From Kondoa subrosea (Eukaryota), in the NCBI GenBank assembly GCA_039545335.1, contig BCIN01000011.1:124001-188000 (forward strand): a DNA stretch of 64,000 nucleotides. Reading direction: 5' to 3'. The notes under the pieces are model-generated. The model was not told the origin of the DNA. It did not search any database and saw nothing but the letters and a program-made list of their open reading frames with translations. Both the position numbers and the translations under genes were made by a program. Of the stretch, positions 25,903-51,050 are shown piece by piece (the first letter of the stretch is position 1; the number at the start of each line of letters is the position of its first letter).

Positions 25903-27023
25903 CTACTTCATGAATCTATTTTTACTCATCAGCCATAGCCTGTAAGTTTCGCGAAGAATTTGACATACTGAGAAGCCAAAGAAGCGAGCTGGCCAAGTCC
26001 ACCGCTGTTACCTCCACCCATAGTTCCTCCGCCAAATTGAGACTGCATCATCAATTTCATAACAGTCATTCCGCTGAATTCAATCGTATCAGCAAACAGA
26101 AATCAGATAGACCTTGATAGACACTGACGCAGAGGAGACTGCATCTTGTTTGTTGCCTTGAGCAGCACCACCAGATTGATCAAAGAGTCTAGAAGCTTCA
26201 GCCATAGCTTTGCCGACGAGCATAGCTTGCACTGCAACAAAGCGGTTCAATCTGGGTTGCGAGTAAGTGTGAAGAAAGAAATCTTACTGCCTCCTCCTCC
26301 TCCCGCACCAGTCGAAGAGGCGCTAGCTCCCGAGCCGGTGAACATTTTCAGACTGTGAGCATGAACTTATCATTGTTAAGCGCCCGAGCGCTCGAAGCAA
26401 GTCCACTCACGCTTGCATCTATACACAAAATGAGCTGATATGCAAAAAGAGTGCGAAAGAGAACCTACTGCTGCAGCGGCGCCCATACCATTGGCAGACA
26501 TGTTGTTGCCGTTGCCTTAATCGTCTCATCAGATTTAGCTCGATTCAGAAGCTGGACGGTTTACCTCGTTCGTAAGCTTCAGCATGAGCGTCCTGTACAC
26601 CATCTTCATCGATATCGTTTGGATCAACAGCTCCGTTCTCTTTCTTCTGATTCAAGAAGGACAAAGCGCTATCGAACAAGCTCCCATCTTGATCTTGAGC
26701 GTTGCCTTTAGCGTGTTCAGCAGCACCGTTGAGCTGTACAATTGAATGATAAGCTTCAAAATACAGATTGCTTGTTATGACACTTACGTCTAAGCCTTGA
26801 GAGGGTCCATTGTTGTATTGCGGACCTCCTTGCATGTTGTTACCTTGATGCTGGGAGTTCTGGTAGGCTGAGTAGCCTTGCTTTGCCATCTATTGACGTA
26901 TTTATGTCATCAGAAAGCTTTGACATAGCGTCGGGAAAGAGAAACTCGCGTTCATGAAGCTGCAACAGATACAAGAATGAGCCTCAAGATGGCGCTAGTT
27001 AGGGCAGGATTGGCTTACTCCAT
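25903..27023 (-). CDS. Beta-flanking protein (beta-fg)-like small Gly-rich fungal protein
   Basis: Spliced reading: MDFMNMAKQGYSAYQ...GSLFDSALSFL...MGAAAAMQALKMF...KAMAEASRLFDQSGGAAQGNKQDAVSSAGMTVMKLMMQSQFGGGTMGGGNSGGLGQLASLASQFMK*. Includes coding exons of 5, 10 and 8 nt and a GC-AG intron. Confidence 0.85.
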
Positions 27024-27397
27024 TGTTGCTTAGTATTGGAAGTTTGAGTTCGACCTTGAAATAGATTCTTCTGTCGCGACAGCCAATAGTCTGGCCAATA
27101 CTGTCAGACCAAGTGAACGATGAGCACTACTCCATAGGGGACCTAGAAGCTATGCACCAAGGCAAGCAAGCTACTTACAGCGCGTCGAATCGCCTGAATC
27201 CATTTGACATGCTTCGACAGCTCTGTTGGAACCTCTTGCATTCATAAATTAGCAGGCAACGCGTCTCAATCCTCTTTGAGCATCATTATCTCAAGCTCGT
27301 GTAATCGGTTACTTAGTTTCCGCCGATTACGTAATCAAACGAGGCCCGAGCATCTGAAATTCTGACTTGATTTCTCATTTCCAACTACGATCGCAGA

Positions 27398-29101
27398 ATG
27401 AGTGAAATTCTTGACGTTGCTATCATTGGAGCTGGTATCTCTGGCATCAACACAGCTTATCGAGTACAAGAAGCTTTCCCTGATATTCGATACAAGATCT
27501 TTGAAGGTCGAAATGATATAGGAGGAACTTGGTCTTTCTTCAAGTACCCTGGTTTACGTAGCGATTCAGATCTCTTTTCTTTTGGATTTGCTTGGAACAC
27601 TTGGTCTGCTGAAAAAGTTATTGCCGATGCTGCTTCAATCATGTCTTATATGCGAGAATCAATCAAGAAGTCTGGAATAGACAAACATATCGAATATGAA
27701 CATAAAGTCATCTCTTACAATTGGAACAGTCAAGATCAATTGTGGGAAATCACTATGAAAGTTAAAGGGCAAGAAAGTAAAGTTGTTAGAGCCAATTGGG
27801 TTGTTCTTGGAACTGGGTACTACGATTACGAGAAGGCTCTTCCTACAACTATTCCTGGTCTGGACAAGTTCAAAGGCAAAGTGAGTCATTACTTCTCCAT
27901 CGTCATTATCGCCGCATGCCGATGCTATCTATTTGCTTGACACAGATCGTTCATCCACAATTCTGGCCTGAAGATCTAGATGTCACAGGCAAGAAAGTTG
28001 CTATTGTCGGTTCGGGCGCAACAGCAATCACCATCTTACCAAGTATAGTCGAAAAAGCATCAAAAGTAACAATCGTTCAAAGAAGTCCTTCTTACATCAG
28101 CGCTTTACCAGCTAAAGATCCAAGCGTTGATTTCTGCAAACGTTTCTTACCACTTTCTTTTGCTAACTGGTTGATGAGAGTTAAATACCTCGTTCTCAGT
28201 TATCTCTTTTTCAATTTCTGTCAAACTTTCCCAAACAAGGCAAGAAAACTCATGTACAAACGAACTAGTGAACAACTTCCCAAAAATATCAGTCTTGATC
28301 CTCATTTCACACCAAAGTAGGTTTCTCTTTCTTCTTCAGGACCTTATTATCGATACAAGTATCTGACCCGGCTTCCTTTTCAGATATTCTCCTTGGGATC
28401 AAAGATTATGTCTTTGTCCTGATGGCGATTTCTTTGAAGCTCTTCGATCTGGAAAAGGAAACATTGCAACAGGTCATATCGAAACAGTTAAAGAGAAGAG
28501 TATCGTTCTAAAAGATGGAGCTGGAGAAATTGAAGCAGATATAATCGTTACTGCTACTGGGTTGAAGATTTTGATTGGTGGTGGAGCTGAAGTTAAGATT
28601 GATGGGAAAACTCAAGTGGTCAATGATAAGATGATTTGGAAGTGTGCTATGATTCAAGATATGCCAAACTTGGTCGCAATCATTGGATACAGTAAGTCAT
28701 GTCTCTATCTGATTACATTGCGCAAGAAAATGCTCATGGCATTACAATAGCTAATGCTTCATGGACACTGGGTGCTGATGTCGCTGCGAAAACAATGACA
28801 AGAATAATGAAGCATCAACGTCAAAACAACTTATCAGCAGCTATTCCTACCGCTCCTGTAGATATCAAACAGACATCTTTCATGAAAATGTCTTCCACTT
28901 ATTTGCTCAAGGGAAAAGGCGATATGCCTGCAGCCGGCAACAAGTATCCTTGGTTGCCTCGGGCTAGCTACTTCTACGATATGTTCGATGCTAAATATGG
29001 TACTATCCATCAAGATATGGTGAGTCAAATGTCGATTTATCTCAAGTCAAGTGCTGATATGGTTGTAGTCATTTATTGACAACTCAACTAAATCCGAGTA
29101 A
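27398..29101 (+). CDS. Flavin-dependent monooxygenase, Baeyer-Villiger/EthA-like
   Basis: GAGISG (FAD), GGTWSFFKYPGLRSDSD, FKGKIVHPQFW (FxGxxxHxxxW), GSGATA (NADPH), PWDQRLCLCPDGDFF, NASWTLGAD. Confidence 0.93.
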
Positions 29102-30097: not shown

Positions 30098-30810
30098 ATG
30101 GACAGACGCAGGAAGAGTGCATTCCTCTTCACGATACCCACTCCGACTTTCCTGCGTGGCAGACAGAGGCAATTAGGCGTATACGGAGCTGGAGCACTCG
30201 TACGCTTGAATCTCAAGTCAAGCCTAAGCCCTTCGATATCTAATGCAACTCGCTACAGTTCGCTATTGGCTGGTGGTCCTTCATTTCTTCTGTTATTCTT
30301 TCAGCCAAAGCGGCACCCCCTGCAGATTCACCTTATGACACCTTTCCCGTTCATGTTCGGTTTCCAGATTGGTTACCTGGTCTCTTTGGTACTTTAGGAA
30401 TGATTATCGTGAATTTGATTGATAAATCAAACTTGATGGGAGAAGAAGGATCTTGGTCAAGCGGGGGAGTAGCATGGAAAGCGAGGTTGTTCTTATTCTT
30501 GGGTTTCGCTTTGATGGCTGGTGGATTGGCTGGATCAATTACGATACTGGTCATCAAGTACTTGCTACCTGATTATGCTCATCCGGAAGTCGTCTGGTGG
30601 GGAGTGTCGAATGTAGTTCAGAACATCTGTATTCTGCTATCGTAAGTCTTTCGTGAGCGTATATGACAAATGCTCAGTTTTCCTTATTGTAGAGCATCGG
30701 TGCTGTGGCTGGCGCAGCTATCCGAAAGTGAATACGAATATAACCTATCAAGCAAGTCTTTGCCAAATTTTTAGCCCTAGTGATGCTGACGCAGCCATGG
30801 AACAGTATGA
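30098..30810 (+). CDS. VPS68: Vacuolar protein sorting 68 (UPF0220/TMEM50 family)
   Basis: LGVYGAGALFAIGWW...DWLPGLFGTLGMIIVNLIDK...VAWKARLFLFLGFALMAGGLAGS...EYEYNLSI*; last intron is GC-AG. Confidence 0.92.
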
Positions 30811-31054: not shown

Positions 31055-34000
31055 ATGGTGAAGCGCTCAGCGCTAAGCAGCGGCGACGAGACTTTAGATC
31101 AACATTCACCTGTAAGTCATGCACCTATGCATTACGCAAAACTTGTTTTGATTCGTTTGTTTGGCGAAGAAACGCGCGAGGACTGAAGTGTCTCGAGAAC
31201 CTTCACAAGCTAGATCGATAGTGGAAGAAGAGCCAGTCGTGCACGCTGAACTGCCCGCAGAAGGTTTGTTCCGACGTGCGAAACTGGCTTAAGCACTGAA
31301 GGGCCAAGCAGAGGATGATGAGGACGATTACCGGCCAGACTCGTCTGACGAAGAATTAGCTCGACAAGCGGAAGCTTCAGCTGCAGCTGCTGGTACACAA
31401 AATGAACCGAAGAAGAGAAGAGCAACTGTCGCACAATGTGCTATAATCAAATGCATTACGTTCGTGTGATCTGTTACTATTATAAGACCACTAATAATGA
31501 ATCTTCTACTGATAGAATGATGGATTTCATGTGTCACAAACATCTTACGGTCAACTTGGGTCCGCAGATCAATGTATGTCTCGGCTCAAGATGATTGAAG
31601 GAGGAATAATGACTGACTTTAGTCGCAATGCAGTTTATCGTCGACAATAATGGGAGCAAGTCTTTTACTGCAAGACTAAAAATGCTATTGACATTTCCTA
31701 TAGGCGGGAAATCGGCTATTTTGGCAGCTTTAGTTATTGGGCTCGGCGGATCCGCAGCCACTACTGTGAGTTACACAATCTTCCGACGAACTCTCATTTG
31801 AAGGCGTATTTTAGGGTCGAGGATTAGGCCTAAAAGATCTCGTTCGCAATGCTCCTGGAGTATCGTAAGCCGTTATTGTCACTTTGGTAGCGTATGCTAA
31901 TACAAACTCCTTGCAGAAAAGCTACTGTTACTGTTCGGCTTGCGAATAAAGGTTCAGAAGCTTACCAGCCCGAAATCTACGGCGATACGATTCTTATCAC
32001 ACGAATAATACCTCGTGAAGGTCAAGGCTCATACAAGATAGCAGATAGCGAAGGGAAACAGATATCTACCAAAAGAGCAGAACTCAATTCTATCGTGGAT
32101 CATTTTGGGCTCGCGATTGATAATCCTCTAAATATCCTCACTCAAGATAATGCCAAACAGTTTCTGGTCAATTCAACTCCGCAAGAGAAATATATGTTCT
32201 TCCTGAGAGGTACTATGCTCCAGCAACTTACCGAGGAATACGAACAACTTCGACTGCTCATCGTCACTCTGCAGTCCAATCTTGACGCTCAAAGACGTTG
32301 CATACCGCGTATGAGAAAAGAGTTGCTCCAAGCACAAGACAGGCAGCGTGCTGTCGCAGCAGCGCAAAGTCATGCATCTGAATTAGAGACATTGAAGGCT
32401 TGTTTGGCTTGGGCTTATGTTACGGAAATTGAAGATAAGATTGCTCAGCAAGCAGAAAAACTCGGTGGTGAAGAAGATCGGGCTTCGCAATACTCAGCTC
32501 AACTGGAAGTGTTCAAGGTCAGTAGCTGTTCTTCACGCGTCTAGCATGCATACTCATCCCGCACTCTCGGATGCACAGGAAGAGCTAGATGAAATAACCA
32601 ACGCTTCACTGCCTTAGAAGCTGAAGTGTCAAAGGAGGAGAGCGGTTCGCTTGCCATCGATGGCAAACTCAAAGGACTCAATAGTCAAATCAAAAAGAAT
32701 ACTGCTGAAATCAGACGGCTAAACGTAGGTCCAGTCCATCGAATCGTTGATCTATCTTATATGCTACTATTCAGACTGAAGGCCGTGAAATGATGACTGC
32801 TATTACCGAAGCTCAACAACGGGCGGTTGAATTCGGGCTTCAGCTCGAAGTCGAAAGCGCTAGAGTTAATCAAGATCAGACCGATTCTCGGCAGCAACAG
32901 ATGTCTGCTCTAGAAGCTAAGAAAGCCGAACAAATAGCCCTGAAAGAGAATCTCCGCATTGCGAGAAGAGAAGCTGACGCATTTACTACACAAGCAGAAG
33001 CTGGATCACAGCAATTCAGAGATTTGAAGATAGATTTAGACAACGCGGCGGTCGATGTGAAGAATAGCGGTCAAGCTATTTCAGATGCTCGACGTGCGCA
33101 AAAGGACACTTTGGTTCGATACGATGGCAACACGACAGCCCTTCTCGACGCTATCAGTCGCGAATCAGGATGGTTTGGCTGTCGTCCTGTTGGACCATTG
33201 GGACGATATATGGCTTTGAAAGATCAACGCTGGTGCGCGCTGGCAGAAACCGTCTTGCGAAATCAATTGACCGGTCACGTATGTTCTGACTCGCGAGATA
33301 AAGCTCGTCTCTGGAAACTACTCCATCGCTTCAACATTCGGGGAGCTCAGGTCTTCTATACACCGATCAATCCCACACTGGACCAAGAGATCCAGGCTAA
33401 GATCAAGGCTAAGAAATTACCGGACGGAAGATTCCTTACCTTGTATAGTATATTGACCGTAAGCCTGGGAGCGCAGCGCTGCCTGATCGCTGATACCTGA
33501 TTAAAGTTTTCCGATGAACTCGTTCGAACCATGATCGTCAACTTAGGACGTCCCGAGACTACTATTTTGGTAACTGATCGTAGAGAGGGCGACAGAATCA
33601 TGGACGATCCTCCGGAAGGGGTGAGAATCTGTTACACAGACGACGGTTTTAGAATGGGTGGCACGTAGGCTTTCGCTTTTTGTTCTTTTGGCTTACAAGC
33701 TCTGATGGCATTGTTAGGCCTGGCTCACGATCAATGGTAGCTTTGAGAATGTTTCAAGGGATGCCTCGACTCTCGAGCGACATTGCACCCGTCATTGCGT
33801 AAGTTGCTCCAGAGCTTCCTCGTAATTGCGACAGATAAAAGGCTAATGAAGTCCGTCAGTCGATTTGAACGAGATCACCAGCAAGCTAGAGCACGCCTCC
33901 AAGATCTACAGGATCAATTTAAACGATTGGATCTGGATCTGAAACAGCTGGATAAACAGAAACGGGCAGCTTACGTGCTTTCTTACTACTCTACTGCGTC

Positions 34001-35354
34001 TGATTGACACTGAAAGTTTGTCCAGAATCGTGTGCGATCTATAGAAGAACAGAATCGAGCGGTTGCAAACTCGCTAGCTGCTCTTGAAGATGATAGATGC
34101 TCGATGAGCCAGTCAATCTCGCTCACCTGGAACAAGCTGTCAAGGTTCGCGTTGCGCGGTTGCGTGATCCCCTCGACTGATGATGCTGCATACAGGAACA
34201 AGAGAGAGAGCAAGGGACAGCAGCGAAACTCAGCTACACAGTAATCGCGAACGGCTCAAATGTCTCAGTGCGGCAAATGAGCCACTCGTCAAAGAAAGGG
34301 AAGCTCTTGAACGGAGCAAAGGTCAGAGTTCAGGAGAGGTTCAGAAGAAAAGGGTATGTATATTGAAAGCTTTCAGTCCTGAACAAGTTTCTGATTCATC
34401 CATGACAGGCGGCGGCTACTACATCATTGGACCAGCGTGGTCAAGCACAAAGCAATGTTGAGCAATATGAAAGGAAACTTTCAAACAAAATGAAAAGGTA
34501 GCAAAAGTTCAAGCGACGTTTGATTTAATCGCAACCAAGCTGCAGGCAAGTCTGTCTAGTCATAATGCTGTGCAGTTGCAGATGATCGCATCAGACATCT
34601 GAAGACAACGCCAAGCTGGTATGCAAAGATCGGGATTCCCTACCAGAAGAGAACAAGATTGTAAAACAGTATTTGAAGGAGGTCAAAGCGAAAACTTTAG
34701 CTCTCGAAGTTATCGAGAGCAGAGAAAATCTATCGATTGACGACATTAATTTGCAAGTGGATCGTGCCCAATCCAGTCTTGCACAGGCATTGGAATCTGT
34801 CAAGGAATTAACCATTTTGTTCAAGGTAAGCTGTTAGACTCTTGGACTGGTATACGGCTAATCGCTCTTCAAGGTCCTTAAAGCTGCCTATACCCGTCGG
34901 ATGGATACATGGTTGTCGTTTCTCAAGCAAATCTCCGAACGCGCTCGCATTCTGTATTTCTAGCACATGGCTGAGCGAGGATTTGTGGGGATTTTGACCC
35001 TCAACCACACTACACGTTGTTTGAAGATCAAAGTAAGTTATTGTTTGGCAATCGACGAGATCATGTCCAAAACCCTTTGCAGGTCCAGACTGAGGATTTC
35101 AACTCCAAAGCATCTCAAGCACGAAGTACCTTCAAACAGGCCAGCAGCCTCTCCGGCGGTAAGGTTCTATATCGGTCTCTTGAGCCAAGTCTGACAAATT
35201 GAGCAGGAGAAAAGAGCTTCTCGACTGTTGGCCTGCTACTTACACTATGGGAGGCTATCAATTGTCCCATTCGTGCTCTAGACGAGTTTGATGTATTTAT
35301 GGATTGCGTCAACCGACGCGTTGCTGTACGTCTCTTTAAACGCCATATATTCAT

Positions 35355-35385
<31 letters not shown>

Positions 35386-35799
35386 TCACAGATGGGCTCC
35401 CTGGTCAGTTCCCTCGAGTGTCTGTGGAAGAGAGAGAGTTCACATTTGAGGCAGATCGACGGTGCTCGCAGCACTAATGAAACGTACGTACATATATATG
35501 ATGCCGCGCCGGACGACACTCACACATGTTTTAGGCAACATCTTCTAAGTCAGTTCTGTGCTTTCATGTCAAATAATACTAATCATGGTGCTTCGAGCAG
35601 TCAGCCCGAATTCCATGTATGTCGTGCGAAACAACAATTGATAGCGCTAATGCGGCATATCAAAGGGCAAAAATCGCTGTTGGAGCAGATATACGAGTGC
35701 TGAAAGTTGTAAGCAAGTTCGCAAATGACAGGATGAGCGCTGATCCCCTTGCAGGCCGATCCAGACCGATCTCAAGGTATTCTGGGAGCAGGAAGATAA
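31055..35799 (+). pseudogene. SMC6: SMC6 paralogue A; full length but disrupted
   Basis: DFMCHKHLTVNLGPQINFIV-D-NNGSGKSAIL, IDNPLNILTQDNAKQFL, hinge [28 protein letters not shown]. Relative to copy B there are frameshifts at about 32595, 34095, 34201-34210 and 34484, and an in-frame TAG at 34961-34963. Confidence 0.85.
35360..35385. repeat. (AT)13 microsatellite in an intron of SMC6 copy A
   Basis: Read directly; it lies just before the CAG acceptor. The equivalent intron of copy B has no such run. Confidence 0.95.
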
Positions 35800-36426
35800 G
35801 CAGTCATGTCTTGGTCACACTACCTGAAATGGAGTCACTCAGTATTACGATACTGCTAGACAGCCAGTAAGTTATTGATTTTCGCTTTTGAGCTTATTGT
35901 CCCGGCGTTGCCTGAACTGGCTCGGAAACAGCGACTGATTGTCTTAATTTACAGGATTGACTGTTCAGAAATGCAAAGCATGTCAGAATCATCTCACCGG
36001 AGCACTGGCTTCAGCAGCGAGACTAGATCTGACTAGCAAGTTGAATAAGGCACCTGATTGCCAGACCAGTCCTTTTATCTCTCTCCTTTTCTGTACGATA
36101 CCAGTGTGTTCCGCATTCTGCGCAACTTGTATGTGGTATTAGCCGTACCGGAAAGCGCACTATATGGTTTTCTTGTTTGATTGCCTTCTATACGAGCTTC
36201 ACTCTACTTTCTCGCTCTGTGATATCTCTCATTATGTCTCTTCGATGATCATTCTACTGGCGGGATCACCTTCAATCAGACCGAATCAAGTTCATTCAGA
36301 TCAATTACATTCCGCTTACCATGCTTGATTTGGCGGATTGCTTGCTCGCAGAGCCCTTTCTGTACATCTGCGACGAATCATGAATCATCCCGTCTGTCTG
36401 CTGCTCACTCATTGTGTTTTTTTAAA

Positions 36427-36940
36427 GACTTGCTGCGGTCCAATCCGAAGCGATCTTCTGATCATTCACAAGCTCCAAACGAAGAAACGCCTTTTGTCTT
36501 GTGGGCTTCTCTCTCTCTCTCTCACCATCAAGTTTTATTAATGCAAACGACACCTCTAACAATCATCACAGAGCAAACAGAGCTCTCATCAACATCCCAA
36601 AACTCGCCTGCGTAAGCCATCAATCTGCTATATCTGGCAAACAGCTCACAGCGGTTTCCTCTGCAGCTCCGAATCTACCACAGGTAGCACCTCGCCAAAA
36701 AGTCGACATGCTCCTGAACCAATTCCTCTTTCACCAAACCTTTCATCAGAACAGAGCAAGAAGCGCTCGCGCGACAATTCGACGCACAGTCGTAAAAGTG
36801 GAAATCACAACAACAAGCGGCGTAAATCAAATGACAAGGAAGGAGATATTAAAGAGAAATTGAGCTTGGAAGAGGTGCAGAACAGGAACAAGTTGGCAGC
36901 GGTGCAATTGAAGGCTGAACTTGGATTCGATGCGAGCTAG
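36427..36940 (+). other. Possible 3' exons of an unknown or decayed gene (Ser/Lys-rich tail)
   Basis: Two segments join in frame over a GTAAGC..CAG intron (about 36612-36666) and end ...KAELGFDAS*. I found no clean 5' exons. Confidence 0.3.
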
Positions 36941-37102
36941 ATAGGACTCGGGCCATGACAGCAAGGCTGGACCTTGAGGAGAAGAGAAGGAAAGATGAGG
37001 CAAAGCAAAGAGAAGATAAAGACAATGACTGCATTTGTACATACTTGGATTTTATGCGATTTGTACAATATTTTGCATGCGCTCAAACATGAATGTACTT
37101 TT

Positions 37103-38731
37103 TTACTCGGCAAAGCATCGGTATGTCTGCATACCTTCTTTCGATGCTGTCGTAGGTATCAATTAGGCAATTCAGTACATAGAAAGGAATAGACTTACCA
37201 ACAATCTTCAGCTCTTGACCAGCCAAGATCAAGCACACCACACCAGCTTTTGCTTCAATAGTCACATCTCCAGCTTTGATCGTCCCACTTCCGCTTTCGA
37301 CGAGAATCACAGAAGGTCCTTGAATTCCACCATGAACTTCTTCTCGCATAGCAGGAATTTGAGATCGAATGAGGTCAAACTCATTGAAAGGTGTATCGTA
37401 ACGTGTCGAATATTGAGCACTACCTCGAGTGAAAGGTTCAGTTTTGACGAAATACTTTGAAGCTGGATGATCAGTTGGACAGAGAACAGCTTTGTTGAAT
37501 GTGTCTAGTGTGTCTTGATCGATTTCTTGGAAGGCCGAATTCAAGACGTTGTCGCTATTGGCCATACATTCGATGCAGTCCTGTAAGCAACAATTAAATT
37601 AATCTAAGGGCAGAATGCGCATCCTGAATCGACTTACGCCTCTGAACCAGGCGTGAATACCGTCAGCAGGGACGTACTACGATATATCAGATGGTTTTCA
37701 ACGAGGATAAGGTAGACTTACAATGCATTCGCCAGGTTGAAGCTTGTATAGATTCATGAAGAAAGTGCAGATGAAAGCTCCAGCATCACCTTCATAATCC
37801 TGTGATGATTGTTTGTACTGCATCAGTGATGCGACTGAAGCGACATAACCACCCTCACATCATTGAGCATCACGAAAACTTCAGCCAAACCTTTGTCTTC
37901 TCCATCCTCAGCACCAATAGCTTTATCTCCTTGCTCTTTACATCGCTTTGCCAATTTCTTGACCAATTCGCTCATCTTGTCTTTCTCATCTTTCCCTCTC
38001 TGCAGAACAGTCTTTACCGCTTCCCTCAATTTCTCTTCACTTTCTTCACCTTCTAAGAATTGTTTCGCACTTGAACCTAAAGCTTCTTTCAATTCTTCAA
38101 CTTTCTCCACGGATTGTCTAATAACTTTCATTCTTCTAAAAGAAGCGAAAGCCCAAAATTCAGATAAAGCTAAACCGATTTCAGGTTTATGATTATCATC
38201 AGGTAAATCTTCAGGATTTTCTTTATGTAATTGTTCGGCTAATTTTTTATCTGGATGAATTTGTAATGGCAGAGCTTTCCCAGCACAAAGCGTTTTGAAT
38301 AAGAATGGTAATTGACCTTTTTGTCGAGCGGTTTCCGTTAATCGATTCAAAGCTTTTCCGTAAATCTTTTCAGGGCAGGAAAGAATTAGTTCGTGTAAAG
38401 GTTGAGGACCAGATGGGAGTAGAGCAGTAGAAGGACCGTTTGGATGAGCAGATCTTATAGCAGCATTACATATTCAGTCATCTGTTCTAAAGGGGAAAGA
38501 GATTGGACTGACCCCATCCATAATTCAGCATAAGGTTGTTTCATATCCTGCTTGAACTTGTTCTCAGGCGTAGCGGATGCATAATGAGCAACTCGAGCAG
38601 TTTCGCCAGATGTACCCCATGGATCTTACTCACTGGATCAGTTGATTATTCGGACGTACGCAAGAGAACTTGGACGCACATTCTTGGACTTTGCAGGATA
38701 AGCGAAAGATAGCTGGGACTTCTGATGACAT
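37103..38731 (-). CDS. Mannose-6-phosphate isomerase type I-like (divergent)
   Basis: CKVQEYPWG, PYAELWMG.AHPNGPS, LPFLFKTLCAGKALPLQIHPDK, DDNHKPEIGLAL, IHAW, IECMANSDNVLNSAF. Confidence 0.9.
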
Positions 38732-39330
38732 TCCCTTTGAGATCTCGGAGTAAAGATGGGGACTAGCTTAAAGCAGTCTCGGAATTCTGGATATACAGGT
38801 ATTGTGTAGCTTTGATGATACTGCTCGAGAGTGCAAAGGTATATACGTTCGTGGTGTGAGAGTAAGAAGCGAAACGTAAGCAATGATCGTCATTCGGATG
38901 CAAAGTCAAGGAACGCGATCTGCTTGGGCTTTGAGCAGTAGAGTTGCTCGTTGAGAGACCTGCTGAGGCATTCAGACTGCCCGCTGTTGTATCCAGAGGC
39001 TGCAGGAGCAAAGAGACAAAACTCTCGACACACCGCAAATAACACGAGAACAAGCCGTCTGCTGCTCAGCCAGTCCTTATAGAACCTGGAGCACAAACTA
39101 ACGGTGACAGTAACTGATAAACCTTGCGACATTTTCCATATGTTTGATTCCAAGATCCTGCATGACTCGACGCTGCAAGCACTCTAAGCCCAATACAGCA
39201 CTGTAGAGCTGTCTGCACGTTCGTGGTAATCCATATCAGCGCAATCGCGAGTCCAAATAGCTGTTCCTCGACAAGCTTCCTACTTTCCAAAATTTCTCTT
39301 TCGACTCTCGCGACCTGCATCAACCAGTTT

Positions 39331-41576
39331 ATGCTCAGGCGCTCTTTATTGAGACCTGTTTATTACATACCACGTACCTCTTCACTATATCCCTTGACTA
39401 GAAATATCATGTCTTCTACACCAGTTGCTGCTAATGCAGATGCACCCGCTGGACCTAGTAAAGGAGAACTGAAGCGAATGGCTAAAGAAGCAGAGAAGGA
39501 AAAGAGAAGGATAGAAAGGGAAGCTAAAGAAGCTGAAGCTAGAGCTGCGAGGGAAGCGGCTGATGTTGTGCGTTTGAACATTTGGCTTTCATTCATTTCA
39601 AGTGAATGCATACAAATTATCGACGCACAGGATTTCGCTACTCAAAACTATGGTAAACTACCAATGCACCAATCGCAAGAGAAGACCAGTAAGTCTTAAC
39701 CTTGCTTTAACAACTGGGTTTATGCTGAAATGACATCCAGACAGGAAATGGACTCAAATCTCTACAATCAATGCCTCCTCAGCAGGGGAAACTGTCTTCT
39801 TCCGTGCTCGAGTACACAATCTACGTTCCCAATCTGCAAAAATGGCCTTTTTCGAATTCCGTCAAAGAACAACAACGATTCAAGCTTTGCTTTCTGTTGA
39901 AGCTGAGAAAGTTAGCAAACAAATGGTCAAATGGGCTAGCACGCTACCGAGAGAAAGTTTGGTATTGGTTGAGGGTATTGCTCAGAAAGCTCCGGAACCC
40001 ATCAAGAGTACCACAGTTCAAGATGCTGAAATCAAGATTGTCAAGGTCAGAGGAGGGAGCGGTCGTCAGCTTTTAGCTGATTTTTTACTTTCCCGTCTGA
40101 CAGATTCACCTGTCTTCGGAAGTGACAGCTGATCTGCCTTTCGTACTGGAAGATGCATCAAGACCTGAATCTGATTTCCAAAAGGTAGGAGTAGTTGCTG
40201 CTTTGCATGATGATAGCTAAGCATGGCTTATCGTCTACAGGAAGATTCTCAATTTGTTCGAGTCGAGCTGAACACGCGATTAGGCGCACGCTCTTTCGAT
40301 TTACGAGTTAGTCAGATCCTTCATTGATTCGAATATGACTCAAAGTACGGGCCCAGACACCAACCAATCAAGCCATCTTCCGCCTAACTTCAGCAGTAGG
40401 CACTCTTTTCCGCAACTACCTCGATTCCCTCAACTTCATTGAAATCCATTCCCCGAAACTTCAAGGTGCCGCCACAGAATCAGGAGCTTCAGTTTTCAAA
40501 GTCGATTATTTCAAACGACCTGCTTTCTTAGCTCAATCACCTCAATTAGCAAAACAAATGTGTATTGCAGCAGATATGGAAAGAGTTTATGAAATTGGAC
40601 CTGTTTTCAGAGCAGAAGATTCAAACACTCATAGACATATGACTGAATTCACTGGATTGGATTTGGAATTGCAGATCGAAGAACATTATCATGAAGCTAT
40701 GTTTGTTCTTGATGGAATGTTGAAATCTATCTTCAAGGGTTTGCAAGAAAAATATGGGAAAGAGATTGAGAGTGTAAAGAAACAATTCCCTAGTGAGGAT
40801 TTCAAGTGGAGGGAGGAAACGGTCGTGCTGCAATTCCCGGAAGCTGTCAAGATGTTGAGGGAAGCAGGAAGAGAAGTGGAAGATTACGAAGACTTTGAGT
40901 GCGTGAAAGATGTTTCGCTTCAGCTTATGTCTGATACGTCTTCGTCTTCACGTACAGTACACCAACAGAACGCTTCCTTGGTCAACTAGTCAAAGACAAA
41001 TACGATACTGATTACTATATCCTGGATAAATTCCCTTCTGCCGTTCGACCATTCTACACAATGCCTGATCCAGCTGATCCAGTGAGTGACGGCTAGCGTC
41101 TTCTGACTATTGTAGTCTGAAAGTACCTGCTCGCTTCACAGAAACTCTCAAACTCTTATGATTTCTTCATGCGAGGCGAAGAGATCCTCTCAGGAGCTCA
41201 ACGAGTACATCATGCACCACTACTAGAAAAGAACATGCGATCAGTAGGTATTGATCCCGATGCGCCTGGTATGAAAGAATACGTCGATGGTTTCAGATGG
41301 GGTTGTCCTCCTCATGCTGGTGGAGGAATAGGTTCGTTAAGGAGTTCTCGCTTTCAGTCAAGAACTGATGGCAAGCCTCTTGGTTGAACAGGTCTAGAGC
41401 GAGTAGTCATGCTTTTCCTCAAACTCGGCAACATTCGATGGGCTTCGCTTTTCCCTCGTGATCCCAGAAGTTTCCCTGCATTTGGAAAATCAGCAACAGA
41501 AGTAGTCAGTGCGACTATTGCGAAAGAAGGAGCTGTTCCGGCAACAGCGGAAGGAGCAGCACAAGGGAGTCAATAG
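39331..41576 (+). CDS. DPS1: Aspartyl-tRNA synthetase, eukaryotic cytosolic type, with N-terminal presequence-like extension (second ATG at 39409)
   Basis: FRARVHN (OB fold), [78 protein letters not shown]. Confidence 0.93.
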
Positions 41577-41711
41577 ATACTAAAGACATAGATATGCAAA
41601 ATAGAGCAAGGAAATGCACAACTCGACAGTGTGGCATGACAGATATGGCTCGAGTTGTGTCTTTCGCAATGCAAGCAATGTGTACATTTCGCCCTATCAT
41701 CCCTTTATCAA

Positions 41712-42376
41712 TTAGTGCGCTGTAAAACGAGACGCAGTAGGAATCAGCATATTTTGAATGTCGTCTTGTCATCCGCCTTACCTTCAGGTGTCTTTGCGAT
41801 ATAGTCAATAGCTTCCGCAACAGAGGTGATTTTGCTATGAAGCAAATGTTCAGCAAATCAAAACGACACTGCTTAGCTTCTACTCACTCTGCATCCTCAT
41901 CTGAGATCTCTACAGCGAACTCTTCTTCAATAGCCATACTGTGCAACAGGCAGTTCCTTAGCTAAGAATAAGCTGTAGACATAACCTGTACGCACACTAC
42001 TTCAACAGCATCTAGGCTGTCCAATCCAAGGTCGGTAGTGAAAGAAGCAGATGAAGTAACCTATTCACCGCAGCAATAACAACATCTTTAGCCATCCAGG
42101 ATTATTTGGATGGATTAAAATGCTGACTTTGGCAGGATCGACCTTTTCGAAAGTCCTCAATACATCCGTTACTCTTTCTTGTATTTGATCTTTGCTCAGT
42201 CCAGCTCCAGCGGCGTAGAACCTAAAATGGGGCACACTCTATTGGTAATGCGCCGAATTATTGAGATTCGTTTGGACAAACCTTTGGGATTGCTGCAAGA
42301 AAGCAGAAGCTGGGCGATAGAGAGCTGCTGGCGCAGGTCTTGCTACTGTGCGGGCTAGAAGTCGAAGAGCGGACAT
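41712..42376 (-). CDS. ACP1: Mitochondrial acyl carrier protein
   Basis: Arg-rich presequence [63 protein letters not shown] (phosphopantetheine DSL motif). Confidence 0.95.
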
Positions 42377-42525
42377 GTTTGATGGTTCGAAACAACGGGC
42401 AATCCCAAGTTGTGAAGTATGGAGCGCGATCAACACGCTATCATTCAGATACTGCTAGTACATATTCCTAATACCCTGGACGTCCCGCGTCTCTTGCTTG
42501 CCTTCCGATCCAGCGAATACGGCCT

Positions 42526-44087
42526 TTAAAGTTGAACATTCCCGCTGACCAGTGAAGACAGGTCAATAACATGCTTCAACGGGAAGGAAGTCCTTACTCA
42601 AAGTATTTGAAGTGATCTGCACCTTCTGGGCCATAGACATTTCCAGCTGGGTTGTACTGGAGTAATCTCAGCTTAGCTAAAACACGATTGAGGTCAGGCA
42701 TGCGACATACAATGCACGAATAGAAAGGAGCAGGACCGTTCTGGAGTCCACCTTCGCACTTGGAGACAGCACAGCCGATTTCTGTGGTAGCTTTCCAAAC
42801 TACCAGGACGCATTTCAGTATGGCTGAAATGACTACTAAGCAGATGGACAAACCAATCTGAGTCCAGTGAGAGTAGACCTGGAGTGAATGAGTACTTGGA
42901 GCAGCATATACATTGGAGCCTTACTGGATCTTTGGGGTTATAGTCAGGTGATTCGCTTGCCCAGCCTTCAAAAGCAGCAGAGAGACTCTGGTAGCCGGCA
43001 GCCTGACAGTCATATCAGATCCATCCGGGACTCTCGTCGATTGAGAGAGCTTACAATGTTCTCGCCTGAAAAAGCAATGAGATACAAGCTTCAGTCGCCA
43101 GAGAACTATCAAGAACTCACCTGACCCAGTACTTTGACCTCCACCATGTTCATATACACACCTATCAGTCTAAAGAAGGATGAGCGCGAATACGGAAGGC
43201 TCAAAAGAAAGCCTTACCCATTCTTGAGCAGCTGTCGCTAACTTTTCAGACCAAGTAACAGGGTTTGCACCATGTAAAGCTCTTTCTGCATCATGAACAG
43301 CAACAGCTTCCATTGCTAAACTGCTTAGAGTGGGTTTGGTTTGAGTAGGCTTAGGTGTTGAAACAGGTTGTGGAACAATAACAGTAGCAGCCTGAGATGT
43401 TTCGAAATGAGCACTGAAAGATGCTTCGAGATGAACCCGAGTAGCTGAAGATTGAGGCTTTACATCTTCTGCTGGTTGTTGTGGAGCTGCAAAAACTGGT
43501 TTGGACGAAGGAGATGGTCGGGCCGCAACAGGAGAAGGCATATCAACTGGCAAGATTGGCATATCAATTGGCAAGATTGACATTTCCGGCGGAGCTGATG
43601 CGTCTGCTTGAGGAGGAGATGGTGCATCTTCTTGAGGAATAGGTGGACGAGGAGCAGTAGACTCATCACCTTCAGGAGTCGCTGGACGAGGACGAGGTCG
43701 CATAGGTCTAGAAGAGTTGTTTCCTTTTGCTTTGTCGTGCCAATAGTGCGGTCTGTGTTGACCTGCACTATTCTTCAGATGTGCCTTTGTATAACGGAGA
43801 GAGAAATGCCTACCCTCGTAAAACTTGCGAAAGTCAGTCCTTGAGTCTGCTTGATTCTCTCTGTGCGAGCCTCGATTTCCACCGCCTTGATGAAATTGAC
43901 GGAATCTTTGCATTTGTTCAACTTTGTTGCCAGTCTTGTCGCATGGCTTTTGGTCTGCCGCCTGGGCAAAGACAGAAGCAGAGAGTAGGAGTACAGAGCT
44001 GTAGTGCCAAAAAAAAAAAACGTGGTCAGAGCGGGAGTAATCGAGGCTGTGCGATGCTAATTACCTTAGAAACTGCAAAGTGAGCAT
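42526..44087 (-). CDS. Secreted CAP/PR-1 protein with a long basic and Pro-rich N-terminal region
   Basis: Signal peptide MLTLQFLSSVLLLSASVFA; HDAERALHGANPVTWSEKLATAAQEW, GENIAAGY, SHWTQIVWKATTEIGCA, YNPAGNV. Confidence 0.9.
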
Positions 44088-44710
44088 TTTTTATGTTGTT
44101 GGGAACTGGCCAGCAGTATGATACGTTGTGAGAAATGACAGGAAGTGGATGATGGTCGAACGAGAGCAAGAGGATAGACTTCGCGGCAGGAGAAGGTTCG
44201 AGCGTTGCCTTGACGACGGCATGCGGAGATGAAACAGATCAAAATCTTGTCACACCGCGATGCGCGACTTGCCAGAGTTGTTGCAATCGATGTACACAGG
44301 AGTATTTGCCCAGCGAAAGAATGCTTGCCAAGATGAAAGATTTGAAGTGAAGCAATCGTGGTTGTGTTATGGAGACAGGAAGAACGGTAGAGACAAATAG
44401 AGTGTTACCTTGAGAGTACTCGTTATGTGTATTGAATACCAACTCAACGGCAGAACGAGGCAGCAACGGGGCGGCTGTCACAAGCTGTGTGTGATATCGA
44501 GATTATCAGAGGAAATCAAGTCCGTTCGATACTGCAGATAAGGAAGTAGAAGAAAAGTAAATAGAGCAAGCAAGAAGCCTTCGATGGCTCGTGCAGGGCC
44601 ATTTTCCTCAAGTCAAGGCTCAATTTTGAAGTCTCAGTCACAAAGCGCGCTGTGAAAGAGAATGACAGCCTTCGTGAGATGGTTGCCTGAGCTCCTGAGA
44701 AGAGCACACG

Positions 44711-46217
44711 ATGCAACGTTTGAGATGCTCGTAGGCAGACAACGGCCAAAGTTATTTAGTTTTCTGGCTTATCAGGCATCTGCCATCGAAAGCAGTCAAT
44801 ATTGGACCTCATGGAATGTCAATACACATCTTGGGAGGTCAGTAACCTTTCTAGATGTAAAGACCAGGCTACATTCCTCGAGCAACAGCCGGAGCTCTTG
44901 GTGGATTACTTGCATCACAAATTCGATCGACTCAGCCGCAAGCGAGAATCAGGTTGCTGCTGCGAAGCGGGCATTTCACAAGAGACTGGATCGCAAACAG
45001 CTGGGATCAATTTGCTCACACGCAAGGATATGGGGAGGCGATCGAGACGGACAGCAATCAAGTCGCTTTCCAGCTGGACAGAGGCACAGGAGAGGAAGAT
45101 CTGCAAATCTGCAAGCCTTTCGAGGTCGAATGGATCTCTTCGCTCGCGGCGGGATCTCGCATTAAGGCAGAGCAACGCAAGACAAAGCGAAAGATTACCT
45201 TGCAATCTTCTGCTCAACCTATTTCTACTCTTTTCGTTACTACAAAGGCCGCAGCTGTTGTACCAGCCTTGCAACTGTTGCGTCAGCGAATCACATCGGA
45301 ATCAACCATCGTTCTGCTGTCAGACGGAATGGGCATCTTGGACGAAGTCGTTGACAATTTCTTCTCCATACCAAATACCAGGCCTTCTTTCATCCTTGGT
45401 CTCGCTAACCAATCCGTCTCTCGAACGTTTGCAGCAAAAGCATTACCTCGAATCTCATGGCATGGAGTGCCAAACGAATCTCTCTCCTTCGGCGTCATTC
45501 CATCTCGACAAGTCAATAGCACACTCTCTTCCATCTTTCCTTCTGCTTCCGCTCACCCTTTACTCAATCCACAATCAGAAACCATCCCATCTCTACAAGA
45601 ACATCTTCCCTACACTTCCGCAACCCATTCTCTACACAGAAGCATCTCAACATTACAAGTCTGTACCAATCTGAACCCTAAATGGCTTTCTCTTCCAGCT
45701 TTCCAAACTCAGCAATTACAAAGATTAGTTTCAAACAGCATCATTAACCCTTTATCAGCTTTATCCGATTCAACGTATGGTCAATTGTACGGATCGACCT
45801 ATTTCAATTCAATGGCTAAAATTCTTTGTCAAGAAGCTTCCAATGCGTTCTATAAACAGCAATACCCTGATATTACTCAACTTAGGAATGGGTTTGAAGA
45901 TTCTCATCCGCTCTCGAGCAAGAGTTTGTACAAGTATACTTTGGATTGTTTGAGAACGAGTCCGAGCCGCGTGAGCAGTACTTTGTCCGATATTCGTAAC
46001 AAGGCGGAGAAGACGGAAATGTGCGCTTTATATTTTCTTTGCTACGATGTTTTTGCTGACCAGTGTCGATAGCGACTACTTGAATGGATATATTGGTAGA
46101 TTGGGTCAACATCTGGGTGTAGCTACACCAACGCACGATATGATGATTCCGCTCATCAATATGAGACTAGAGCAAGCTAGAATAACAACAAAATCTTCTG
46201 CACAAAGGCATTTCTAA
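44711..46217 (+). CDS. Ketopantoate reductase (PanE/ApbA family); start uncertain (44711 or 44816)
   Basis: IHILGAGALGGLLA (Rossmann), LFVTTKAAAVVPAL, STIVLLSDGMG, LVSNSIINPLSAL, SSTLSDI...KTEIDYLNGYI. Confidence 0.82.
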
Positions 46218-46291
46218 ATGATGGGGCATAGCATACAGAAGTAGTTGTACACGTATAAGAAATACAAAGGGTTGTTTCGTTGGTAGACGAC

Positions 46292-49200
46292 TCAATTACC
46301 AGTACCGAGCCGACCTTGTTGTCGTTCTGGATCTGCTACTCGTAGAACGCGAATGTCAGGACCGACAGCGACGTTGGCCATAGCATTGGGCGAGACTTTG
46401 AACAGCAATGAGCATATTTTGAGAAAGCAGACAGACAACATACTCAGAATGAATTGGCTAACGGAATGTAATCAGCCTCTCGATCACAAGTAATAACAAA
46501 AGTACATACGTTTCGTTGGTTTGACGTGCACCCTCGATCTGTCAAGAATATGAGCGAAGAGCTCCAACAATTAAGGTGCATCGGCATACAATCATGCCCA
46601 TCTATAACGGAACCGCATTTAGCTAGCTTCAGTAGGAGGCAATCAGCAAGACTCACAGCAACACGTCTGTTTACAGGATCTGAGAAGACAGGAATCAGCC
46701 AAACCGTTGGCAAAATCAGCTCCGAACGAACCCATAAACACATCAAATTCGTCGAGAGCACGGATAGGACAACCAATCGATTCCCAGAGCGTCAACAAGA
46801 GTGAGACAGTCGAGAAACTCTTTTCACCTGTTGACATTCGGATCAGAGAGTACAAACGCAAACAAAAAGCTACATACCACCAGAGAGAGTCTTCGCATCC
46901 TTGAAGGCATCCTTCTTCTGAGTCTGCGTTCCCTGAGTATAAGTGTCTTCGGTTTGTACCTTTCCAACCAGCTTAGCCAAGGGCGAGAAGTGGAAACGAA
47001 TCCACTCACTTTGACGTCTAGACGGCCCTTCTCGTGGTGGAAGGTGAGTTTCCCGCTGTAGCCACGGGTAGAAAGATGCATAAGGAATTGCATACGCGCT
47101 CGCATGCAAATGTATCGACGGAAATGATCCCATTTGTCGGTTCTGACATTGTAAGCGTGCTTCAGTGCCTGCAATGATGATAGTCAGTATACTTCGCTGT
47201 ATGAAAATCATGATCAATCACCTTGAAAAGGCCATTTAATTCACTGATAGCTCCAGCTGCCTTTCCATGAGCTGTACGTTTTCGATCGACTTCGAGATTG
47301 ATCTCATCAATAGACATTCCTTGACGTTTGTTGGTAGCGTCTAGCGCCTTCTTTTTGGCTTGCACATCCGCATTGTAATCTTTGGTCGACTTCTTTGGAT
47401 CCATGGTCAAGCTGTCTCGATCTTCCCAAACCTCTTCAGCTTGCTCGGTCGCCGTCTGGCAGATTGTATATCAGACGATGCAGATATATAATGAAAAGTG
47501 AGACTAAACTGACCTGCAGTGTCTCAGCAATTCCTTCGTAAGCTTCTTTCAATGTTGTAACTTTGAAGTTTTGCTGAGCAAGCTTGTTCTCGTACTGCTT
47601 GACGTTACTTGAACCTTGATTTCGAGCGTCTAAGACTTTGTTTGCAGCAGTCTGGGAGCCTCCAATGTCAGCTTCCAACACTTTGTCTTTGGCCCAAACG
47701 CACTCTTTTCTTTTGGACTTCCCTATCGTGATTGAGTTTTCGTTGTTCCAAAGCGTCTCTCTCTTTCACCAGAGGCTCATTGCGACTGCTGAGTGCATTG
47801 AGGCGTTCTCGATTTGCTTGGAATTGAGTCCTGCTACTGTCGATCGCTGTTTCTTGTTCCTGCGCACTTGAAGTTTAGAAGTAGATCAAACAGCGGTAAA
47901 AGCTATACCTGTAAGCCTTCTTCCATATGAGCGATGTTGACGGGCTCGTTGACAATCATGTTGTCTTCTAGAGCAGCGATAGAATTTGCCAACCTGCGCG
48001 ACTTATCTTCCGCGGTGCGAGCACGAGTCTAGTACCGATATGTAAGCTATCTCCGCACTTAATCAAGCACACTTACAACAGCAGCTCGTCTCTTGGTCTC
48101 TAAATCCGTCAATTCTTGATTCATCTGCTGAACTTGTGCTTGAATTGCTTGGAAGCGCTGGTTAGCCTGTTGCTTGTCTGCTTCATAGCGCCTAAAAGAT
48201 GCGTGAGACTTGCAAAGGCGAAATTGATCTCGAGCACTGACTGGATGACAGAGGCAACGTCTTTTGTCATACGAGGTGTACCCGGCCAAGGTCTGAGAGT
48301 TGTCATTTGACGACCGCCAATACTGTACATTTCGGTTCAGCTAAGACAGCACAGCCATGCGCACTACTCACACCCCACCCAATCTGTAGCCATCATTGGT
48401 GTAACAAGTTTGTACGAATTGAGGTGGATGTGCCATGATGCGATCACCTTCCTGACGCTGAGTTACGAGAATACTAGACTCCGGGCGGATCAAGTTGACA
48501 ACCATAGTTCGCACAAGTTCGTCGGAGAACTACAAAACTGATCATTAGGCTCTGCATGAAACGGCAAGAGCGAAGAACTTGCGGTCAAAACCTTGTAGAT
48601 AGTTACATAATCAGTTCCAGGATCAACACGTTCAAGTTCACGATCCAGAGTAGGGTTGACAGTTGTGCAAAAGACAGGTGTACCTTGCATATTGAATCGT
48701 CGCAGTAAGGCGTACATACGATCCTTATCGCGAGGGTTGGAACAGACATAACCATTGAGCTGAAAGCCAAAGACGCTCTCAAGGGTACTACTCCAACGTT
48801 GATCTTTGAGCGTAATGAAGCGACCTAGAGGTCCAACTGGAGGTGTGCCAGCCCAGCCATTATCGCGTTGAATAGCATCGATTAAAGCCCTGACATTGTT
48901 ACCGTAAGGAGCTAGAGCATCGTTCTGACTTCGACGCGCGGCATTGATGGCCTGATCAGCAGTTCTGAGATCGCTTTCAGCATTGCCAAGATTCTGTTTG
49001 AGTGCTCTAAATTCGTTTGAGCCAGCTTCAGCTTGAGTAGTTAATGCGTCCGCTTCACGCTTAGCATCAAGAATGCTTTGACTGTTTGTAGCATGTTCAT
49101 CTTTCAGATTCTGCAATTCTAAAGCTTGCTGTTGACGAGGTCCAGTGAGATCTTGAGCATTCTTAGCTTGTTCTTCTTCTAGCTGACGTTTGAACTCGGC

Positions 49201-51050
49201 TGCTCTTTGTTCAGCCTCTTTGATCGCAGTCATCATTTCTCGTCCCTCGGCCTGAGAAAGATGAGCTAATGTGACACTCGGACACAGCGAACTTACATGC
49301 AGCTGCTTCAATTCAGTATGATTGTCTTTCAATTTTCGCTTGATGTCGACCAGTTCAGTATCGATGCCTTCAGTACCGTTCTCCTCTGCAGCGACTTCAG
49401 CTTCCAGAGCAGTGAACTGTTCATTGATCGTATCTAGCTCTTTCTGTAAAAACGTGCGCTACGCTTCAGCAAACAGTGTGCGATAGGATCACACGATCCT
49501 ACCTTGTACTTCTCCAGCTGTTCTTCATACTGCGGTACTCTCGCTTCTTCATGACCCAATTTTTCCGCTTGTTCAGCAATCTTGTTCTCAATTTCTACAA
49601 CATAAGACCAAGCCAAACATTTCTTTGCTTCTTCAAGTTTCGCAGCTTGGTTTTGAGCTGCTTCAGCACTTTTCTGTTTGGCTAAAGCATCGGCTAATTC
49701 TTTTTTGAGTTGAGGTATAATCTGTTTCTGTCGATCGGTACTGGCTTTCACTTCTCTTGTCAGATCTCTCAATTGATCGTACTCTTCTGTAAGTTGTTGC
49801 AACATGGTACCGCGTAGGAAGAAAGCGTATTTCTCTTCTGTAAAAGTCAAAACCAGCAACATCAGCAACAGGCAGCTAGCTTCTATGATGAGACTGGACT
49901 AACGCGCAGTTGAGTTTTGAAGAAACTGTCGAGCATTATCTTGAGACAGTACATTGATAGGATTATCGACAGCAATAGAGAAATGATCGGTGATGTTAGT
50001 CAGTTCTTCTCTTTTCGTGTAAAGTACTTTGCCTTCGTTGTTGGCGATCTTGTACGCTCCACCACCTTCGCGAGCAATAGTCCGAGTGATGAGAATGGAG
50101 TCGCCGAATTCTTCTGGTTTGTAAGCATCTGGACCTTTGTTGGCGAGTCGAACAGTGATAGTCGCTTTACTGTAAGGGAGATTAAGTGTTGCTTCGCAAT
50201 TGCATGACAAAAGACCCACGAGACTCCTGGCTCATTGCGCACAAAGTCTTTGATTCCAGTTCCACGACCCTAAGATAGATCTCAGAGCTATGTCTTGATA
50301 TACAGGTTTAACTTACTGTGCTGTTCGCTTTCCCACCGAGACAAACAGAGAGAGCGCTCAGAAAGGCGGACTTTCCACCTAAGCAGAAACAGGTCAGTCT
50401 GGATGCTTCTGTCAACAGTACGCTACTTACTTCCGTTGTTCCCGACAACGAACTATGGATTCTGATCAGCGTTCCTGCTCCGTGTCTCCTGGGACTAAAC
50501 ATACATTGATTCGATTACCAAGATTCAACGTCATCTTCTTGTGACACATAAAGTCAGTCACTCTATGATGAAGCGTTCGCATCAGTACTTTGACGAATAG
50601 TACAATCACCAAACATACTCAATGGATTTGATCACAGCTGCCTGAGCCGCAACACCGCGTTTGACATGACCATGATTAGCAGCCATAGCGCGAGCTTTTT
50701 CTTGCAAAGCTTCTTCATCAGATCCATCGTCGTCGTCATCATCGTCTGTTGATTTGCAAAAGCTTAGCGTAATTCACAGTCGTGACTTCCACGAGTCGAA
50801 CACTGACCCTCTAATGCAGCTTCACGATGTATAGCTGGGTCTTCTTCATCCTCGTCCATTGCGTTGTTGGCTTCTGAAGTCTCTTGATTCCTTTGACTTT
50901 CTGTTCGAGCGCGTTTCTTTCGAGAGCAAATTTCAAAACATCAGGGTCGGAATTTTAGATTGACCAGCTGCCTAGGCCTACAGAGGAATGAGAACTCCTG
51001 TATTGATCATCATCATCGCTTCCAGAGGCTGCTGCAGCGCGTTTAGCCAT
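46292..51050 (-). CDS. SMC6: Structural maintenance of chromosomes protein 6, intact copy B
   Basis: [48 protein letters not shown], hinge [44 protein letters not shown]. No frameshift or stop was found in the exons I checked. Confidence 0.95.

Follow-up and report, generated by a model that had tools for sequence, protein, structure and literature searches.

SMC6 genes at the locus

The 64,000-nucleotide (nt) window analyzed here, which is positions 124,001 to 188,000 of contig BCIN01000011.1 of the basidiomycete Kondoa subrosea (assembly GCA_039545335.1), contains two genes homologous to SMC6, which in fungi is usually regarded as a single-copy core gene. The window is densely packed with genes, its GC content is about 46%, and its introns are very short. 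Copy A is on the plus strand, with its ATG at 31055 and a TAA at 35797-35799, while copy B, on the minus strand, runs from an ATG at 51050 to a stop codon at 46292-46294; the two copies are convergent and are spaced by 10.5 kilobases (kb). A preliminary description of this DNA had proposed such a convergent pair, and the start and stop codons are exactly where it had placed them. The gene models were built using an exon-chain finder and then a spliced protein-to-genome aligner, which allowed GT-AG and GC-AG introns in all phases, as well as frameshifts and stops. The model of B was guided by the 1124-amino-acid protein P0003, and that of A by protein B. The coordinates of the two genes, their informative exons and the genes lying between them are collected in Table 1.

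The joined coding sequence of B, assembled from 26 exons, consists of 1144 codons and a stop, and its translation is free of internal stops, so that a whole-protein open reading frame (ORF) is present. The 25 introns of B are 45-66 nt long, and 24 of them are GT-AG, while one is GC-AG. The Walker A motif of B reads GNNGSGKS, in agreement with the GxNGSGKS pattern of the P-loop. We consider B likely to be the functional SMC6 gene of this fungus, encoding the nu-SMC subunit of its Smc5/6 complex, a reading which goes together with the history of A considered below.

The assignment of both copies to SMC6 was examined by phmmer searches of the PDB. The N-terminal head exons retrieved SMC6 chains only, with values of 2.3e-33 for A and 2.3e-19 for B, and the same was observed for the hinge exons (1.1e-09 for A and 9.4e-14 for B). 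The four exon queries (A and B; head and hinge) matched 5, 5, 2, and 6 distinct PDB sequences, none of which was SMC1-5 or Rad50. Both copies also align end to end with a 1124-amino-acid protein of Atractiella and a 1151-amino-acid protein of Meredithblackwellia, which gives the head-arm-hinge-arm-head layout. None of the eight single-exon translations matched Pfam at E ≤ 0.01, the exons being short pieces of split domains. The layout of B and of the ancestral A is like that of canonical fungal SMC6 (Smc6/Rad18 of yeasts; chains 7qcd_B and 9lwi_A, hinge 5mg8_B), and the motifs in common are LSGGEKSFS (signature) and DEFDVFMD (Walker B) for A and B, and GNNGSGKS (Walker A) for B. A and B differ from the canonical case in that two copies are found in one genome, and the nearest full-length database proteins are only about 29-33% identical. 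Canonical SMC6 interacts with Smc5 through its hinge, and with Nse4 and Nse5/6 through its neck and head.

The spliced alignment placed 1129 of the 1144 codons of protein B on locus A, from the ATG to the stop, and exons of 12 and 14 nt were found in both copies, which bears out the colinearity that had been claimed in the preliminary description. There are 25 introns in either copy; they coincide at 23 positions, including those defining three micro-exons, and two introns are private to each gene. In both copies an intron interrupts the LSGGEKSFS signature at an identical point. The lengths of the corresponding exons are equal or differ by multiples of three, except in three stretches. A processed pseudogene is recognized by the loss of the parental introns, but A keeps 23 of the 25 intron positions of B and has two introns of its own. 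The retained introns, together with the two private introns of each copy, rule out retroposition, and the private introns also point to a long separate life of A and B as spliced genes. GC-AG introns with the donor GCAAGT were observed at 48530-48582 (minus strand) in B, and at 31656-31703 and 34546-34594 (both plus strand) in A, and this fungus appears to tolerate such donors.

Table 1. Features of the SMC6 locus (coordinates in the window)
Feature	Position	Strand	Detail or evidence
Gene A, disrupted SMC6 paralogue, putative unprocessed pseudogene; 26 exon equivalents, colinear with B	31055-35799	+	Spliced alignment of protein B and two outgroup proteins
A Walker A micro-exon, 22 nt, FIVDNNGS	31634-31655	+	Followed by a GC donor (GCAAGT at 31656)
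A exon, 601 nt, corresponding to the 266-nt and 335-nt exons of B fused	31917-32517	+	B intron 49838-49903 missing from A
A lesion 1, exon of 146 nt (147 nt in B)	32579-32724	+	Frameshift near 32594-32598; in-frame reading from the acceptor meets TAG
A lesion 2, two exons, 275 nt (136 + 139; in B 276 nt, 120 + 156)	34026-34353	+	Frameshift at about 34095-34096
A lesion 3, exon of 137 nt (138 nt in B)	34409-34545	+	Frameshift at about 34481-34485, A-rich stretch
A intron with GC donor GCAAGT	34546-34594	+	B counterpart has GTCAGT
A lesion 4, in-frame TAG where B has ATG	34961-34963	+	C-terminal head exon 34874-35032
A exon with end of signature motif and Walker B (EKSFS...DEFDVFMD)	35207-35325	+	Equal to 96-nt and 23-nt exons of B; intervening B intron missing
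A micro-exons of 12 nt (35392-35403) and 14 nt (35535-35548)	35392-35548	+	29-nt exon in between
A 3' end, exons of 16, 43, and 42 nt	35601-35796	+	Introns 35617-35665 and 35709-35754; single 104-nt last exon in B
Gene B, intact SMC6	46292-51050	-	Spliced alignment against P0003, N-terminal exons from ab initio model, SMC6-only PDB matches
B micro-exons of 12 nt (46601-46590) and 14 nt (46457-46444)	46444-46601	-	29-nt exon in between
B Walker A micro-exon, 22 nt, FVVGNNGS	50431-50452	-	Canonical glycine, then GT donor
Unrelated genes between A and B, whole block	36223-46214		Pfam on stop-to-stop ORFs
ORFs matching no Pfam family	36.2-36.9 kb	+	Pfam on stop-to-stop ORFs
Phosphomannose isomerase	about 37.8-38.5 kb	-	Pfam
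Class II aminoacyl-tRNA synthetase	39.7-41.4 kb	+	Pfam
CAP-domain protein	43.2-44.1 kb	-	Pfam
Ketopantoate reductase	44.9-46.2 kb	+	Pfam

Disruption of the reading frame of copy A

The three stretches in which the exon lengths depart from those of B are each 1 nt short in A, and a fourth lesion is an in-frame stop codon (Table 1). Past each of the three frameshifts, B is matched only by a shifted frame of A. Lesion 2 is located outside any homopolymer, and its shifted frame reads MLDEPVNLAHLE; the intron borders at this lesion are uncertain, with the donor at either 34145 or 34162. At lesion 3 the shifted frame reads KQNEKVAKVQ... after YERKL, which matches B. The TAG of lesion 4 is located within a conserved head segment just upstream of the signature motif. 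When two outgroup proteins were aligned to A without the use of B, both alignments required the TAG and the shifts 2 and 3. The alignment of P0003 also required the shift of lesion 1, while that of P0148 bridged lesion 1 by another splice. Two ab initio models of A, of 1002 and 1179 amino acids, were rejected, because they were open only by the inclusion of introns or shifted frames.

The data showed that a whole-protein ORF is missing in A, where it is interrupted by three frameshifts and one TAG. The preliminary description had counted two full-length genes, which is correct for the intact B, but not for A. Copy A combines a parent-like structure with disabling mutations, as do unprocessed duplicated pseudogenes, and judging from its reading frame it is in this strain most probably a dead copy, which would encode no complete SMC6. 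The first glycine of its P-loop is replaced by Asp (GAC at 31643-31645), so that A reads DNNGSGKS and departs from the GxNGSGKS pattern, while this glycine is present in at least 85% of 25 outgroup proteins. This Asp, together with the two GC donors of A at 31656 and 34546, where B has GT, could be considered as softer signs of decay.

The accuracy of these letters was verified using contigs from two sequencing runs, X1 and X2. With word depths of 146 and 53, the contigs showed 0 differences and 0 gaps in comparison with positions 31055-51050, and this exact match of two contig sets argues that the lesions of A are not assembly errors. A TA-rich simple repeat at 35351-35394, inside the A intron 35326-35391, reads IYIYIYIY in one frame, and the X2 contigs are interrupted at this place.

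Divergence and phylogeny of the two copies

The amino acid identity of A and B is 56% over the 1129 aligned codons, while the identity at the first, second, and third codon positions is 67%, 74%, and 40%, respectively. Identity is 68% and 62% in the two heads, compared with 54% and 46% in the two arms and 56% in the hinge. With the LSGGEKSFS and DEFDVFMD motifs found in both copies, these values agree with the earlier remark that the coiled coils and the hinge diverged, while the head motifs were kept. The number of nonsynonymous substitutions per site (dN) between A and B is 0.36-0.37, and that of synonymous substitutions per site (dS) is 1.74 by the LWL85 method. Because of saturation, dS was not computable by NG86, and both NG86 and YN00 failed to give dS for most regions. 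At four-fold degenerate sites 102 of 274 are identical, compared to 27.8% expected from composition, which by our own arithmetic corresponds to about 1.5 substitutions per site.

At residues conserved in the SMC6 family, both copies are similarly conservative. Of the 87 columns in which at least 85% of 25 outgroup proteins agree, A differs at five and keeps 82, and B differs at four and keeps 83; the long-branch rows P0114, P0121, P0135, and P0111 were removed before this count, and were retained in the tree described below. The near-saturated synonymous sites, the low dN, and the retention of conserved residues suggest that A was under purifying selection for a long time, as a paralogue distinct from B, which is what the preliminary description had proposed. 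A gene kept by purifying selection until its synonymous sites approached saturation must have done something useful. The residues unique to A outnumbered those unique to B in comparisons with three single outgroups (106 vs. 75, 107 vs. 62, and 83 vs. 74), and when the changes were polarized by many outgroups 130 were assigned to A and 103 to B; these relative-rate counts put somewhat more change on A. The GC content, the GC content at third codon positions (GC3), the codon score, the intron length, and the intron GC of A match those of B and of other ORFs in the window.

An exhaustive HMMER search of representative proteins with the A hinge exon gave 462 matches, of which the best was P0001, a fragment of 236 amino acids with 41% identity, while the best full-length match was about 31% identical. 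Over the hinge exon, the identity of P0001 is 39% with A and 46% with B. The closest full-length proteins are those of Atractiella rhizophila, Meredithblackwellia eburnea, and Mixia osmundae, which are 29-33% identical to A and B. Protein searches with the B hinge exon gave 0 matches at 1e-10 among 7816 candidates, and those with the A head exon gave 0 matches at 1e-8 among 133 candidates. In metagenome scans, none of the 237 pattern matches to the A hinge exon and none of the 94 pattern matches to the alignment of A and B head exons was confirmed.

A phylogeny had been suggested as a check in the preliminary description, and a maximum-likelihood tree was built from 31 rows, which were A, B, and 29 database proteins of 950-1300 amino acids among the 150 matches listed, with no SMC5 outgroup. 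In this tree A and B are sisters, with a support of 100 in the Shimodaira-Hasegawa approximate likelihood-ratio test (SH-aLRT), and, inside the fungal SMC6 clade, they form a supported group with the Pucciniomycotina SMC6 proteins of Mixia, Atractiella, and Meredithblackwellia, which makes the host one of the Pucciniomycotina. The stem of A and B has a length of 0.41, while the branches of A and B are 0.40 and 0.25 long, which makes the branch of A about 1.6 times that of B.

The time of loss of A was approached by a simulation of neutral decay, in which random substitutions were introduced into the coding sequence of B in 300 runs per level. The mean number of stops was 0.8, 1.4, 2.7, 6.9, 21, and 46 at 0.005, 0.01, 0.02, 0.05, 0.2, and 0.87 substitutions per site, respectively, while the probability of at most one stop was 0.82, 0.61, 0.23, and 0.007 at the four lowest levels, and 0 at the two highest. 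One stop is seen in A. Together with the simulation, this suggests that the neutral phase occupied a few per cent of the branch of A at most. The lesion count of A would roughly correspond to 0.005-0.02 neutral substitutions per site, the branch as a whole spanning some 0.7 synonymous substitutions per site or more.

Proposed origin and loss of copy A

The explanation that we consider likely is that B is the working SMC6 gene, and that A is a local duplicate of it, which was constrained for a long time and was pseudogenized recently. A self-comparison of the window found no other gene around A or B duplicated, which indicates that the duplicated unit was the SMC6 gene alone. Copy A would have arisen from the ancestor of B by a duplication at the DNA level, in which the introns were kept, and which probably took place locally, in situ. 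It would then have been maintained as a protein-coding gene of the SMC6 type, under purifying selection, for almost all the time since the duplication, and it may have encoded a complete SMC6-like ATPase, capable of pairing with Smc5. The conversion to a pseudogene would have occurred only recently, in this strain or species. As interpreted from its sequence, A is thus an SMC6 paralogue specific to this lineage that has become a putative unprocessed pseudogene, and a pseudogene annotation suits the locus better than a contorted gene model.

Several observations weigh against this explanation. The two read sets share a single sample, possibly the very one that was assembled; they exclude an assembly error, and the state of A could be specific to the strain. 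Lesions 1 and 3 are located in A-rich sequence, and an ab initio model threads an open frame of 1179 amino acids through A, albeit with the use of intron and out-of-frame sequence. Neither the protein searches nor the metagenome scans yielded an orthologue of A or B from a close relative, and the age of the duplication and the recency of the loss are thus judged from this pair of copies. The dN/dS ratio of about 0.2-0.25 is an upper-bound style estimate, as dS is near saturation, and it is a pairwise figure for A and B.

Among the other explanations, the source of A could be the ordinary SMC6 of a related, though fairly distant, fungus, acquired by introgression or horizontal transfer, redundant, and decaying since its arrival. 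The low dN, the near-saturated dS, and the four lesions would fit such an origin equally well as they fit the retention of a paralogue, no side-by-side maintenance of two paralogues would be needed, and the relatives are sampled too thinly to exclude a donor from the same class, the nearest fragment P0001 being closer to B than to A. We nevertheless regard this origin as unlikely, because A has B as a close neighbour in a block of housekeeping genes, around which neither foreign nor mobile DNA was observed, its composition, codon usage, and introns are host-like, and A and B are closest to each other among all rows of the tree. A continued function of A, through alternative splice sites which bypass the lesions or through a useful shortened product, seems slightly more improbable. 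It could be argued from the ab initio path, which uses canonical splice sites and stays open across the locus, from the alternative splice by which P0148 crosses lesion 1, and from the start codon, the stop codon, and every acceptor being in place. However, the bypass models use intron sequence or a wrong frame, and they lose ...HMAERGFVGILTLNHTTRCLKIK, which is aligned with a conserved head segment of B and the outgroups. Moreover, one bypass would be required for each of the four separate lesions, and agreement with B and the outgroups is found in the broken frames. The Asp in the Walker A motif and the two GC donors also speak against a working A.

That the lesions are sequencing or assembly artefacts, and A is intact, is very improbable. 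The A-rich runs at lesions 1 and 3 could have been a source of such errors, but the contig sets of two separate runs equal the window at every base of A, while lesion 2 is not homopolymeric and lesion 4 is a substitution. The least credible possibility, which deserves hardly any weight, is that A has been decaying neutrally ever since the duplication, and the preliminary description had named this beforehand as the case that would overturn its proposal. The longer branch of A and the presence of disabling lesions are in the direction expected for such decay. On the other hand, the simulation rejected it, because dozens of stops would be expected in A (a mean of 21 at 0.2 and 46 at 0.87 substitutions per site), while one was observed, and 0 of 300 runs had at most one. 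The 82 conserved columns kept by A, and its exon lengths, which remain in frame apart from the three deficits of 1 nt, are also in contrast to neutral decay.

The recent pseudogenization of a long-constrained duplicate resembles the known unprocessed pseudogenes in that A keeps the parental intron-exon structure, and contains frameshifts and a premature stop. Most duplicated pseudogenes die shortly after the duplication. A differs from them in that it would have been functional for a very long time beforehand, as suggested by its near-saturated dS, its dN of about 0.37, and its conserved residues. No duplicated SMC6 in a fungus appeared among the papers listed by a full-text literature search, and the parts of a preprint on the evolution of SMC complexes that we consulted do not mention one (10.1101/2024.01.07.573240). 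The best precedent for a genome keeping two SMC6 genes, and a well-studied exception to the single-copy state, is the lineage-specific pair SMC6A and SMC6B of Arabidopsis, which are partially redundant, with the double mutant being embryo-lethal (PMC9099584). Both plant copies are intact, in contrast to the pair in this basidiomycete host, where one copy is broken, and the copies are convergent and 10.5 kb apart.

The preliminary description had further raised the possibility of a second Smc5/6 complex built on A, at present or in the past. The present-day part of the proposal is not supported, since A is broken in this strain, and none would be assembled from it now; a second complex is offered here as a hypothesis concerning the past or the relatives of this strain, in which it would not be operative. 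It is conceivable, although we would lean slightly against it, that the lineage ran two distinct SMC6 proteins through most of its past, in alternative Smc5/6 complexes which shared or split the other subunits, and that A is intact in sister species or strains, its loss here being fresh and perhaps at the level of the strain. Relatives may still carry a second working SMC6, and, if this is true, they would provide a natural system for studying the diversification of Smc5/6.

Surrounding genes

The genes located between the two copies are unrelated to SMC6, as had been described previously, and include four genes named by Pfam and the ORFs at 36.2-36.9 kb (Table 1). In or just after the tRNA-synthetase gene, at 41391-41687, the contigs of run X2 break and have adaptor-like loose ends. 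This break looks like a library artefact rather than a structural difference, as X1 spans it in a single contig of 250 kb. From the adaptor-like ends we presume that the libraries were short-read transposase libraries, which also speaks against a sequencing artefact at the lesions of A.

Upstream of A, Pfam matches were found to a coatomer gamma appendage (24621-25494, plus strand), DUF7721 (26548-26889, minus strand), a flavin monooxygenase-like protein (27371-27937, plus strand), and UPF0220 (30244-30642, plus strand), which is an ordinary housekeeping context. The total length of the contig sets, about 19 million letters, suggests a small genome. A second old pair, arranged in tandem on the plus strand, was found at 1148-2490 and 3180-4523, with about 58-67% identity in tblastx pieces and 73% DNA identity over 407 nt, and one ORF of its second copy showed a weak NUDIX match (8.8e-05). 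This tandem pair diverged to a degree similar to that of the SMC6 pair.

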